From an uncultured cyanobacterium (GTDB taxonomy: Bacteria > Cyanobacteriota > Cyanobacteriia > Cyanobacteriales > Cyanobacteriaceae): 64,000 nucleotides of DNA. Shown here piece after piece: positions 34,217 through 37,802 of the stretch. The DNA is taken from contig CAVQBA010000004.1 of the NCBI GenBank assembly GCA_963710605.1, positions 1,358,035-1,422,034 of the forward strand. Reading direction: 5' to 3'. Numbering within the stretch: position 1 is the first letter of the stretch; every line of letters starts with the position of its first letter. Both the position numbers and the translations under genes were made by a program. The notes under the pieces are model-generated. The model did no database searches, was not told the DNA's origin, and was given only the letters and a program-made list of their open reading frames with translations.

Positions 34217-34636
34217 ATGACGACTAATTTATCCCATAAAAAAATCGGCGTTGCTGTCATTGTCAATCACCGAGAAGAAATTTTAATTGACAAAAGATTA
34301 CCTACAGGAGTAATGGCAAATTTATGGGAGTTTCCCGGTGGCAAGATAGAAGCGAATGAAAGTGTAACTGATTGTGTTAGAAGAGAAATTTTAGAGGAGT
34401 TGGGTGTAACAGTAAAAATCGATCGACATTTGATTGATATTACTCATAACTATCCTCAATTTCAAGTTACTTTATACGTTTATCTATGCCATATAATCGA
34501 AGGAAAACCTCAACCAATAGAGTGTGCCGAGATTAAATGGGTGAAGGTATCGCAATTAAACACCTTTACTTTTCCTGAGGCGAATCAAGCGATTATTACG
34601 GCTTTGGAAAAAACAGACTTAAAAATTACTTTTTAA
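34217..34636 (+). CDS. mutT: 8-oxo-dGTP diphosphatase (Nudix)
   Basis: WEFPGGKIEANES...REILEELG Nudix box; FPEAN. Confidence 0.9.
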   Translation: MTTNLSHKKIGVAVIVNHREEILIDKRLPTGVMANLWEFPGGKIEANESVTDCVRREILEELGVTVKIDRHLIDITHNYPQFQVTLYVYLCHIIEGKPQPIECAEIKWVKVSQLNTFTFPEANQAIITALEKTDLKITF

Positions 34637-34799
34637 AAATTAGCTTCATCTCAATTGTAGAGACAACATAAATGTCTTTGATTTACATCTAATTGCTTAA
34701 AATTAACCAAAAAAAAGCAGAGAATAAATCTCTGATAAAAAAACAAACAATTATCGACAAATTCTTTATTGACCTTATTGAAATAGTTTCAATAAAACG

Positions 34800-34952
34800 T
34801 TATTTAAGGTAGTAATTTTTTTCAGCTTCTAACTGAGCAACTAAAGCATTTTGACCTTTTGCTCTAGCTACTTGTAAACGATGTTCTAAGGTTTTTAAAA
34901 CATTTTGATTATGAACAGTTTGAGCTTTTTTATTCGATTGTAATTTAATCAT
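34800..34952 (-). CDS. pirA: PirA (PII-interacting regulator of arginine synthesis, Ssr0692 family), 50 aa; absent from the ORF track
   Basis: Hand translation MIKLQSNKKAQTVHNQNVLKTLEHRLQVARAKGQNALVAQLEAEKNYYLK fits the PirA pattern H..N....LE.RL.VARAKG...L...LEAE; AAGGA RBS. Confidence 0.85.
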   Translation of the reverse strand: MIKLQSNKKAQTVHNQNVLKTLEHRLQVARAKGQNALVAQLEAEKNYYLK

Positions 34953-35071
34953 TTTTTTCCTTGTAATTATAAAATAACTAGATATTTATTGGTTATATTA
35001 AATAACGTTAATTTTTCGATAACTGCTTGACAGCTCAAATTATTTAGTTATTATTTTCAACCATTATTTTT

Positions 35072-35176
35072 TTAACTAATAGATGAATGGTGACGATTAC
35101 TAATCATTAATAAACGCCCTTTTCTATCAGTAAAAACATAGTTACTAATTAGTTTGGGGAAGTTTTGATTGTTCAT
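35072..35176 (-). CDS. 34-aa small ORF directly downstream of the glutamine riboswitch
   Basis: MNNQNFPKLISNYVFTDRKGRLLMISNRHHSSIS; AGAGG RBS 7 nt upstream of the ATG. Confidence 0.55.
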   Translation of the reverse strand: MNNQNFPKLISNYVFTDRKGRLLMISNRHHSSIS

Positions 35177-35217
35177 AATGTCGCCTCTTCTAATTCTTGA
35201 TGATTTTAGATACGAGA

Positions 35218-35278
35218 CGCGTTCCTTCAGAAGATTTAATTACTTCTTACTTCCGTCTGTTTAAAACAGATGAACGTT
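35218..35278 (-). ncRNA. Glutamine riboswitch class I (glnA RNA motif)
   Basis: Minus strand AACGTTCA-TCTGT-TTTAA-ACAGA-CGGAAGTA-AGAAG-TAATTAAAT-CTTCT-GAAGGAACGCG. P1 is CGTTC/GAACG, with a P2 stem, the conserved CGGAAGUA junction and an E-loop P3. Confidence 0.9.
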
Positions 35279-35293
35279 TTAAGATACAAATCT

Positions 35294-35323
35294 AGTATAT
35301 CTTGAAAGTATCTTATTTGACAA
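35294..35323 (-). promoter_or_regulatory. Sigma70-type promoter with NtcA-like box overlapping -35
   Basis: -35 TTGTCA (35318-35323), 18-nt spacer, -10 TATACT (35294-35299); GTA-N8-GAC at 35308-35321 is one mismatch from GTA-N8-TAC. Confidence 0.65.
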
Positions 35324-35542
35324 CTAAAAATAATTTTTTCTAAACTTTGAGATAATTAATTCAAATCAATTTTCAAAAATAATCCACAGTTAAAAACGAA
35401 TGATTAATGATGAGAAATAAGTGATTGATAGAGTTTGAGACAGATTTATCTATTTGGTAAATGTTAGTTGAGATATTACGTAACTATCTAGTTTTCACTT
35501 CATGAAACTTAATAGTTGATGTTAAAGATAAAGCTTTTGGTT

Positions 35543-36335
35543 TTATTCGTAAAAAGCTATTTTAGACCATCGATCGATTATTTGAATTAATTTATTTTCA
35601 GTAATTAATCTTATCTTTTTTTTACCTTGAGTAACTTTACTTCTTTCCATTATCTCAACTAAAGACAGCAAATGGCTTTTTCTTCCTTTCTTCACGAATA
35701 AATTTAACGACTTTATCTAATTCTTTATTAGTAATTCCTGCTATTTGTAAAGGCGAAACAAGTTTTTCTATTTCTAAAGTATTAAATGCTGTTAATAAAT
35801 CTAATTTTGTAGGTAACTGCTCATTTAATGATTGCTTATTATCTACAGCTAATTGTTTATTAATTTGTTCAATTTGAGCTTTTAATTGTTTAATTTTATT
35901 CTCGAAATCTTGCTGATAATTTTCGATATACTGATTAAATCTATTTTCTAGGTTATCTATTCTACTATCTTTATCCTTATTAGTTTCTACAGCTTCTTTT
36001 GGGGCGACGGTAGTAACAGTTTTTGTCTCATTATCATGCAATAAATTTAGTTGCTGACTAATCAAATCATTTTCTTTTTTATTAACAATAAAAGCCCTAA
36101 TCGTTTCAAATTCATCATCAAATTCCCATGCTTTTAAAGCCCCATAAAATTGAAAACTACCTTCAACCAATTCGTATCTTTCCAAACTGGTTTCTTCAAC
36201 AACAAGAGGTTGCACAATACCATCTAACTGTAAAATTAATTGAGCTAACTTTTCTAAATCTTCCTCGGCAAAATTCGATCGAGGTATTTTAGATGTTATT
36301 TTATCAATGTCAACTAAAGATGTTTTAAAACTCAT
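35543..36335 (-). CDS. ParB/Srx-like N-terminal domain protein with coiled coil, frameshifted near 35668
   Basis: LEKLAQLILQLDGIVQPLVVEE...YELVEG; another frame continues SLVEIMERSK...IIDRWSKIAFYE to a stop at 35543. Confidence 0.7.
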
Positions 36336-36406
36336 AACTAATCTCTATTTTATCTATTATGTGATAGCCAAATTTAAAATCTAGGAAAACCAAAAATAAT
36401 AATTGA

Positions 36407-37802
36407 TTATTCGCCTATTTTCTCTTTTAATTCTAAAGATAAAGCCTCAAACTCAGCGGCTGCCATTGAGTCTGGTTTAAATTCAAAAATTGACTTTGGC
36501 TCAGGAATTTCTAAATTATCAATTAAAATAAAGTTATCTAAAGCTTTAGCTAAATCATCTCTTTCATAAATGCTAGTTTCAAATAACGGCAAATTATATC
36601 TTTGGGTGATGACTTTTCTTCTTTTAGGTAAAGTATATTGACAAAATTTAGCATTACTGGAAATTTTACTGGGCAATACACCTAAGACTTTGATAGGGGC
36701 AAAACCAAAGGCATCTTTATCATCGTTGACTTCCTCAATAAAACTTTTGACATTTTTTAATCCTTCATTAGCAAATGGCTTCAAGTCAGAAGGAATAATT
36801 AAATAATCAGCACTAATCATTGCTATTTTGGCGTATAAGTTTAAAGAAGGAGGAGTGTCGATGAAGACATAATCATAATCATTTTCTACCTCTGCCAATT
36901 TATATTTTAATCTAGTTCTAGATGCGGCAATATCAACTAAATTTCTTTCTTCGTACATTATAGTTAATATGGGCAGGAATTGCATCAATATTATCTTGAC
37001 TGTAACTGGTTTTACGAGCAACTTCTTTGATTGAATATTTTTTACTTGATTTAATCAAATGAAAGACATTAGAGTCTTTTAAATCATCATCAATTTCGTC
37101 GGTAAATTTGGCTAAACCAACGGCAAATGTAGTATTAGCTTGACTATCTAAGTCAACAATTAAAATTTTAGCACCTTGATGGGCTAAGGCGGCGGCTAAG
37201 TTAATAACCGTGGTAGTTTTACCTACGCCTCCTTTGTTATGATATACCGCAATTACTTTCATTTTTTTGGCTTTATTTAATGATTGAGAAGAAATTTGTG
37301 CTGAAGTAGATTTTTCCATTTCTGGAGATTTTTCTAGTAGTTTATCATTATTAGCGATCGATTTAATTTGTGTTATTAACGTTTCTTTACCAACAATTTT
37401 TTGTAGTTTAGGTAAGTATTGATTAATATTTTTACTGTCGTCTTCTAATAGAAGATAGATATTTTCTTTTTGTAATTTATAAAGTCTAATTTCTTTACCA
37501 TTAGTGATTAATCCATATTTGACTTTAAGTGTTTTTAAGTATCTTCTAAATTTAGGAATATGTACATCTAAATTTTCACGAGGATGTTTAGCTTCGATAA
37601 TAACATAGGCATTTCTTCTTATTTTCAATGGTATTTTATCTAACCCTAAAGGGATTAAAAGAAAATCTAGACGAATATTTTTATATCTTACTTCTTGATA
37701 CCAATCGGCGTAATTATATCCTAATAAAGGTAATAAAAAACGAACGATAAATTTGCTTTCTACTTCTTTTTCGTTACGACACCAATGAGGGGAAAATTTC
37801 AC
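36407..37802 (-). CDS. ParA-family ATPase fused to an N-terminal HsdR_N-like PD-(D/E)xK domain, frameshifted near 36960
   Basis: NEKEVESKFI..LGY..QEV..RLDF..IEAK..TNGKE; then HNKGGVGKTT, DLDSQAN, and YDYVFIDTPPS in the second ORF. Confidence 0.82.

Follow-up and report, generated by a model that had tools for sequence, protein, structure and literature searches.

What would a glutamine riboswitch be kept for when the gene behind it appears to have decayed? This question is raised by a locus on the minus strand of a 64,000-nucleotide (nt) stretch of DNA, here called the window, from an uncultured member of the Cyanobacteriaceae (GenBank assembly GCA_963710605.1, contig CAVQBA010000004.1, positions 1,358,035 to 1,422,034 of the forward strand), in which a predicted type-1 glutamine riboswitch precedes a 34-codon open reading frame (ORF) and pirA2, a gene for a 50-amino-acid PirA protein. 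The glutamine riboswitch is known for one output, the glutamine synthetase (GS) inactivating factor IF17, and PirA is known as an NtcA-repressed, small-RNA-tuned brake on PII-activated arginine synthesis. The reading that we favor, with a probability of about 0.6, is that the locus represents a nitrogen-excess module of the family, in which the first cistron, a short gif gene, is dead in the window organism and the switch tunes the two-cistron mRNA. The riboswitch-mini-IF7-pirA operon is a variant on the known glutamine riboswitch system.

Conserved layout and a decayed first cistron

The riboswitch was present in 31 of 40 relatives, including 18 of 19 same-family genomes, and the order riboswitch, short gif, pirA was found in all 18 of these and in one genome of another family (L007). 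In the relatives the aptamer is followed by a platform of 41 to 44 nt, an ORF of 44 to 54 amino acids, a spacer of 41 to 230 nt, and a pirA gene of 50 to 51 amino acids. The short ORFs have the consensus MNAK..SQQARLLMVDNRQRKQNRQASMLER..VGLQ, and all five that were tested matched positions 2 to 35 of the 66 positions of NF052599 (IF7A) with 25 to 37 bits; having no C-terminal half, they fall short of the cut-off of 70. The first cistron of the relatives is thus a predicted mini-IF7 (mini-gif), corresponding to the N-terminal half of the GS inactivating factor. Elsewhere, the same-family genomes have full-length IF7, in one or two copies, and a pirA that stands alone, so the pirA behind the riboswitch is an extra paralogue, which we call pirA2. 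A PDB search returned no relative for the mini-gif profile or PirA2, the best hit being a chance match to a kinesin (E 0.7).

An earlier note on this DNA had placed four elements on the minus strand, namely, a promoter with an NtcA-like box, a canonical class I glutamine aptamer, a 34-codon ORF, and a 50-amino-acid PirA, and all of them are present; we are highly confident in the anatomy given in Table 1. The covariance model RF01739 matched the aptamer over its full length (positions 1 to 53) with 57.7 bits, well over the gathering score of 35 (E 4.2e-10). It was the sole Rfam match in the window and the sole RF01739 copy in the 3.93-Mb assembly. The 50-amino-acid product is identified as PirA by NCBIfam NF050139 (PirA_Argsyn), which matched residues 3 to 47 with 66.3 bits against a curated cut-off of 50.

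Table 1. Parts of the riboswitch-pirA2 locus (window coordinates)
Feature	Position	Strand	Evidence
Leader -35 hexamer TTGTCA	35318..35323	-	Promoter scan; position kept in relatives
NtcA-like box GTCAAATAAGATAC, over the -35 hexamer	35308..35321	-	Sequence read; GT-N10-AC at matching offset in 15/20 leaders
Leader -10 hexamer TATACT	35294..35299	-	Promoter scan; -10-like hexamer in 20/20 leaders
Type-1 glutamine riboswitch aptamer (glnA RNA motif, RF01739)	35216..35278	-	Covariance model
Expression platform	35182..35219	-	Anti-Shine-Dalgarno CGUCUC (35219..35214) and Shine-Dalgarno GAGGCG (35187..35182)
34-codon ORF with ATG start, very probably a truncated and diverged mini-IF7 (short gif) remnant	35072..35176	-	Colinear with gif of relatives
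Decayed 3' portion of the former gif frame, with extra stops and a 2-nt indel	35027..35071	-	DNA alignment, 12 relatives
pirA2, 50-amino-acid PirA paralogue with its own Shine-Dalgarno sequence (AAGGA)	34800..34952	-	NF050139
Intrinsic terminator-like hairpin (34734..34718) and T run	34708..34734	-	Terminator scan

The 34-codon ORF, which had been reported without being recognized as the decayed form of the usual cargo, is very probably a gif pseudogene, as suggested by its DNA alignment with 12 relatives. In this colinear alignment, the window codons AAT CGT CAC CAT TCA TCT ATT AGT TAA stand against N R Q R K Q N R Q of the relatives, and a nonsense change from CAA to TAA falls on the Gln codon of the conserved NRQ motif. 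A frameshift was considered as the cause of the short ORF and ruled out, since in the colinear alignment the stop arises from a point change. Behind the stop, the former gif frame is still recognizable. At the protein level, the 34-amino-acid ORF retains M1, N2, and the R-LLM--NR core alone. It matched no NCBIfam or Pfam family at E values up to 1, and a hidden Markov model (HMM) of gif, built from the short ORFs of the relatives, scored it at 8.6 bits locally and at 9.3 bits genome-wide (E 3.3); a search of the window genome with the same HMM gave nothing significant (best E 0.9). The essential arginines of IF7 are presumably those of its QQAR, NRQ, and LxR motifs. The ORF keeps the first of them only (KGR), the NRQ and LxR arginine columns being lost behind the premature stop. 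Three conserved arginines are essential for the binding of IF7 to GS (PMC6316151; statements from this and the other cited papers rest on excerpts of them).

It is improbable, in our view, that the 34-amino-acid peptide is instead functional, as a shortened inactivating factor retargeted to GlnN, to a GlnT-like enzyme, or to some other partner, with the riboswitch kept for its sake. Such a role would fit the retained start codon, Shine-Dalgarno (SD) sequence, and RLLM..NR core, as well as the description of a cyanobacterium without glnA whose GS type III undergoes an ammonium-dependent inactivation that is unexplained (PMC6316151), but 7 of the 24 otherwise invariant DNA columns within the 34 codons have changed, the second half of the IF7 core with its NRQ and LxR arginines is gone, and the peptide falls into no family by the searches above.

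The decay of gif has a likely cause in the loss of its target. With the GS type I model TIGR00653, 20 relatives reached 680 to 712 bits, another gave a partial match of 551 bits, and one with a copy cut by a contig end gave 425 bits, against 289 bits at best in the window genome and 226 bits in its congener. GlnA exceeded the cut-off in 22 of 25 genomes, the exceptions being the window genome, the congener, and the genome with the contig-end-truncated copy. A tblastn search of the window genome with the GlnA of a relative found a 31%-identical gene only, which encodes a GlnT-like enzyme of 434 amino acids (TIGR03105, 661 bits); the genome also contains a GlnN-type frame of 726 amino acids, NtcA (361 bits), and PII (105.5 bits). 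IF7 was found in 19 of 21 genomes and not in the window genome or the congener. Judging from these searches, the genus of the window organism seems to have lost GS type I along with IF7, and the decay of gif is likely to have followed from this loss. Cyanobacteria without glnA have been described, namely, Pseudanabaena PCC 6903 and Synechococcus RS9917 (PMC6316151).

The changes in the window are unevenly distributed over the locus. When we counted them at the columns invariant in 18 same-family relatives, the aptamer had changed at 0 of 30 columns, the platform at 1 of 19, the promoter at 2 of 12, and pirA2 at 0 of 42. The gif region had changed at 13 of 38, of which 7 belong to the 24 columns within the 34 codons and 6 to the 14 columns past the stop. 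By Fisher's exact test, the gif region differed from the aptamer with p = 3e-4 and from the aptamer and platform together with p = 5e-5. The loss of GS type I and IF7 probably predates the split between the window organism and its congener, because both are without them, and the flanking genes that the two share are 70 to 75% identical at the DNA level. Decay therefore had time to act and the aptamer was left untouched, which suggests that the switch was kept for something and probably still does something in the window organism. The window genome is a natural experiment, in which the cargo has apparently decayed, the target enzyme was not found, and the aptamer and pirA are untouched, and it therefore yields a testable prediction on what the switch is kept for.

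A candidate leader promoter and a predicted translational switch

The leader promoter, TTGTCA-18-TATACT (35323..35294), has 10 of 12 matches to the sigma-70 consensus. The promoter scan by itself performed at the level of chance (5 sites versus 6.8 ± 2.6 in shuffled sequences), and the promoter is credible because of its conservation across relatives, not because of its score: a -10-like element lies 21 to 25 nt 5' of the aptamer in all 20 leaders compared. Transcription is predicted to start near 35287. The sequence GTCAAATAAGATAC overlaps the -35 hexamer and is a candidate NtcA box, fitting GT-N10-AC and deviating from GTA-N8-TAC by one mismatch; 5 of the 20 leaders have no GT-N10-AC box (L007, L012, L016, L020, and L029). 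The exact GTA-N8-TAC motif occurs 11 times in the window against 10.7 expected, so the motif alone is uninformative. The position of the candidate box over the -35 hexamer is that expected for a repressor site.

On the plus strand, a promoter-like sequence, TTGACA-16-TATTAT (35027..35054; 11 of 12 matches), is oriented antisense to the riboswitch and the gif remnant. In Synechocystis, gifB and pirA have been reported to have antisense RNAs. A comparable site was found in just 4 of 20 loci, and we regard the plus-strand site as a probable chance occurrence.

The two internal stems of the aptamer show compensatory changes across the 20 leaders, in agreement with a three-stem fold. The six bases directly 3' of stem P1 (CGUCUC) form an anti-SD segment that pairs with the SD sequence GAGGCG of the first ORF, and all six pairs are kept in 20 of 20 leaders, with U-G at one pair in three of them. 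In addition, GUUCAU, the 5' strand of P1, can pair with AUGAAC at the first ORF's start codon; all 20 leaders keep five of these six pairs, and a single relative has lost the sixth. The platform is not followed by a T run and is thus not a terminator. Since the platform hides the SD sequence and the start codon and contains no terminator, the riboswitch is predicted to be a translational switch for the first ORF, and it would respond to L-glutamine.

In the reading that we favor, the leader promoter would be repressed through the NtcA-like box under nitrogen limitation, and it would drive a transcript made up of the glutamine riboswitch leader, two cistrons, and the terminator. In the absence of glutamine, the six bases directly 3' of P1 would mask the SD sequence by pairing, and the start codon could be masked likewise by the 5' strand of P1; glutamine binding would fix P1 and free both, turning translation ON as at gifB (Klahn et al. 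2018). In the window, the first cistron would be a pseudogene, formed by the nonsense codon and then by further decay, and the most likely remaining role of the switch would be to tune how much two-cistron mRNA, and with it PirA2, is present, by way of leader-ORF translation, RNase E access, or both. NtcA repression, cotranscription, the glutamine response, and any effect on PirA2 are all predicted steps of this scheme.

The scheme draws on gifB (sll1515) of Synechocystis sp. PCC 6803, whose leader has an NtcA-repressed promoter, with an NtcA-type box over the -35 element, and an RF01739 aptamer (Klahn et al. 2018, PMC6212724). The window locus shares the aptamer family and has its candidate box in the corresponding position. 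The gifB riboswitch acts on translation, and in the published model glutamine binding melts a short helix beside P1 and releases the ribosome-binding site (PMC6212724). The window locus also resembles it in the anti-SD segment beside P1, consistent with a translational ON switch, and in a cargo from the GS inactivating factor lineage. The cargo itself differs, being IF17 at gifB and in this family a 44- to 54-amino-acid mini-IF7 without DUF4278 that appears decayed in the window. Also unlike gifB, a second cistron, pirA, follows, and the window organism has no detectable GS type I. An RNase E study located a processing site, seen as a monophosphorylated 5' end, within the gifB riboswitch of Synechocystis and suggested a possible dual action of this riboswitch (Hoffmann et al. 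2021, PMC8682795). The lysine riboswitch of Escherichia coli lysC, cited in the same study, acts on both translation and RNase E-mediated decay; it differs from the window riboswitch in ligand, fold, and organism, but by its likeness a translational riboswitch could set the level of a whole mRNA and hence of a downstream cistron (PMC8682795).

Transcription of pirA2 and its possible link to glutamine

A perfect GTA-N8-TAC box stands upstream of 17 of 17 stand-alone pirA genes (15 relatives, the window genome, and the congener). In 15 of these genes it precedes the start codon by 79 to 101 nt; for the other two, the distance is measured from an upstream in-frame ATG. The stand-alone pirA of the window genome encodes 51 amino acids (G000:C4:847652-847777, plus strand; L039 738..893) and has its perfect box, GTAACAAAAGATAC, 93 nt before the start. 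The 119-nt spacer upstream of pirA2 (34953..35071), on the other hand, contains no GT-N10-AC motif, and GTA-N8-TAC occurs in 1 of 20 gif-pirA spacers (L006, whose close relatives are without it). No promoter is conserved across these 20 spacers. The standard scan of the minus strand of the window spacer found no promoter for pirA2, and a promoter of its own was rejected after a looser scan yielded weak and nonconserved candidates only. The 34-codon ORF and pirA2 share a strand, and the terminator scan placed nothing between them; the one terminator-like site in 34500..35700 is located 3' of pirA2 (0.2 ± 0.4 in shuffled sequences). Because pirA2 has neither an NtcA box nor a good promoter of its own, it is probably cotranscribed with the riboswitch leader, as had been suggested, and the simplest reading is that it would take its nitrogen control from the leader promoter.

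Synechocystis pirA belongs to the same NF050139 family and has the same size, and expression under nitrogen excess is likewise expected of the window copy (PMC8092223). It differs in having its own transcription start and two NtcA sites, where pirA2 has the spacer described above and a riboswitch leader.

The earlier note had gone further and proposed that glutamine gates pirA itself and thereby the PII/NAGK control of arginine synthesis, a proposal that we consider doubtful. It draws support from the co-location of switch and gene without a terminator, from the retention of the aptamer while gif decays, and from the 15 of 53 sampled loci with PirA as cargo, 11 of them DUF4278-PirA fusions starting 42 to 88 nt after the aptamer (see below). 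The platform, however, acts on the SD sequence and start codon of the first ORF only, and pirA2 lies 119 nt further on with its own SD sequence, so the effect would be indirect at most. Direct gating of pirA2 by the predicted switch is thus unlikely. An indirect route is plausible, in which leader-ORF translation, or RNase E sites exposed in response to the ligand, would determine how long the entire mRNA lasts. Cyanobacteria are not known to have Rho, whose absence would rule out Rho-dependent polarity. That glutamine affects PirA2 levels at all is a tentative proposition, less likely than not.

The proposed output through NAGK is doubtful here. The NAGK gene, argB (TIGR00761), scored 289 to 304 bits in 11 of 11 other genomes and was not found in the window genome or the congener, where the best hits (35.6 and 30.4 bits) belong to other kinase families; tblastn with the NAGK of a relative gave no match at E values up to 0.01. 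Of the other arginine genes, the window genome has argJ and argH, and the congener has argJ as well. NAGK, with which PirA competes for PII in an ADP-dependent manner, is its known downstream target; should NAGK truly be absent, the action of PirA through PII in this genus must have another target. The genus would then be a lineage that seemingly lives without GS type I, IF7, and NAGK, yet keeps NtcA, PII, and two pirA genes. The direction assumed for PirA, promotion of arginine synthesis, is also the reverse of that reported, in which competition between PirA and NAGK for PII brings arginine synthesis down (Bolay et al. 2021, PMC8092223). In sum, the probable place of pirA on the riboswitch transcript and the recurrence of PirA as cargo survive from the earlier reading; direct gating is unlikely, the NAGK output is doubtful in this organism, and the arginine direction was reversed. 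It is a speculative extension, and a rather unlikely one, that the glutamine riboswitch regulon reaches into PII signaling and that in the window organism the switch is kept only for PirA2, by way of the decayed leader ORF, with a role of PirA independent of NAGK.

Several observations weigh against the favored reading. The looser scan found TAACCA-18-TATAAT (its -10-like TATAAT at 34971..34966) ending 13 nt before the start codon of pirA2, and a weak promoter is possible in this AT-rich spacer. Most relatives have a stable hairpin in the gif-pirA spacer, followed by a T run in L012, L016, and L020; these hairpins could stop the transcript before pirA, so that read-through may be partial. The window spacer has no such stable hairpin. 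Because neither the anti-SD helix nor the pairing at the start codon varies in sequence, covariation speaks neither for nor against this part of the structure. In the congener neither the riboswitch nor pirA2 was found, a different gene adjoining mutT; its assembly is 67% complete, and its parB-like flank stops 134 nt short of the contig end. If the locus was truly lost there, it is dispensable and may be a relic in the window too. Finally, the window assembly is 85% complete (its file contains no N runs), and with two incomplete assemblies glnA, gifA, and argB being "not found" does not equal proven loss.

The spacer hairpins, the weak -10-like TATAAT, and the failure to find the locus in the congener would together suit another history, in which pirA2 is independent, with an unrecognized promoter of its own, and the riboswitch and 34-codon ORF are a dying relic whose mutations are still to come. 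We give this a lower probability still than the gating of pirA. It sits poorly with the difference between the aptamer (0 of 30) and the gif region (13 of 38; p = 3e-4), with a loss of GS type I and IF7 that is probably older than the split from the congener, and with the contrast between 20 spacers sharing no conserved promoter or NtcA box and the perfect box of all 17 stand-alone pirA genes.

Some spacers of relatives contain further elements. In one genus (L005, L009, L010, and L018) an AT-rich hairpin, UUUUUAGUAG...CUACUAGAAA, recurs with apparent compensatory changes and without a T run, and it could be a processing or stabilizing element or a protein operator. The spacer of L013 is stretched to 230 nt by an inserted array in which a 25-nt unit (GTCCAGTAACAAAC.CAAGGTTTGC) is repeated in tandem about five times. 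Upstream of the locus on the same strand (window 35655..37021), there are a gene for a 226-amino-acid protein with a ParB N-terminal domain (37.2 bits) and an ORF of 204 amino acids; the interval from the ParB-like gene to the riboswitch promoter showed no terminator-like site.

PirA as riboswitch cargo in other cyanobacteria

We scanned species-representative genomes for the aptamer core and took 80 loci from at least 121 matching stretches. Of these, 53 were cyanobacterial by their record titles, and their downstream content was read within 900 nt on the same strand; only the PirA-bearing ones were scored with RF01739, the others being identified by sequence pattern. A PirA domain was found downstream in 15 of the 53 sampled cyanobacterial loci. 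In 11 it is part of a DUF4278-PirA fusion that starts 42 to 88 nt after the aptamer, and in 4 a short ORF is followed by a separate pirA (L043, L065, and L090, and L041 with a tandem PirA). IF7-type cargo only was seen in 17 loci, DUF4278 alone in 10, and other or hydrophobic peptides in 11. All 16 PirA-bearing loci, including a further fusion in G036 whose start also falls 42 to 88 nt behind the aptamer, scored above the gathering score of RF01739. Nine of the resulting 12 fusions passed the PirA cut-off, the remaining three (L064, L105, and L077) reaching 38 to 45 bits, and DUF4278 was confirmed in 8 of 8 tested. PirA is therefore a recurrent riboswitch cargo, and the layout is conserved in the family.

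PirA and the riboswitch are thus linked in two ways, by an operon across one family and by direct fusions in many other lineages. In the fusion proteins (about 130 to 146 amino acids) the PirA domain is in the first, directly switched ORF, whereas in the window PirA is a separate second cistron. If the link is true, glutamine itself, beyond 2-oxoglutarate via NtcA, would set the titration of PII.

Source databases label the fusion proteins "DUF4278 domain-containing protein" or PirA. Klahn et al. (2018, PMC6212724) treated every DUF4278 cargo as IF17 or an IF17-like protein, and their Table S1 lists RF01739 hits without a Pfam-recognized downstream protein in two Cyanobacterium strains, entries that match the Pfam-less mini-gif layout. 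N-terminally extended forms of PirA, possibly misannotated and of elusive function, were noted by Bolay et al. (2021, PMC8092223). No description of a riboswitch-PirA link was found in the literature searched, subscription-only papers lying outside the search, and none appears in excerpts of PMC8092223, PMC9196836, PMC7760959, and PMC13362535; DUF4278 and PirA were not found together in any searchable paper.

The sampled loci and the window genome contain several other arrangements. In Microcoleus sp. FACHB-1515 (L041 974..1555), the riboswitch is followed by a 62-amino-acid Pfam-less ORF and a 105-amino-acid PirA with two repeats (NF050139, 96.8 bits, two stretches). The window genome encodes a 61-amino-acid DUF4278-only protein (55.8 bits; G000:C7:65146-65319, plus strand; L161 1501..1686), which is without a riboswitch, since the only RF01739 copy of the genome is that in the window. 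In filamentous or spiral cyanobacteria (L046, L088, L094, and L100), the pattern precedes a hydrophobic, membrane-like, Pfam-less peptide of 69 to 74 amino acids, which is a cargo class unrelated to DUF4278, IF7, and PirA. The other 27 of the 80 sampled loci, identified by sequence pattern only, are noncyanobacterial, from genomes such as SAR86, SAR116, gammaproteobacterial metagenome-assembled genomes, and some gut Firmicutes (e.g., L048, L051, L063, L078, and L091), and two loci carry tandem copies.

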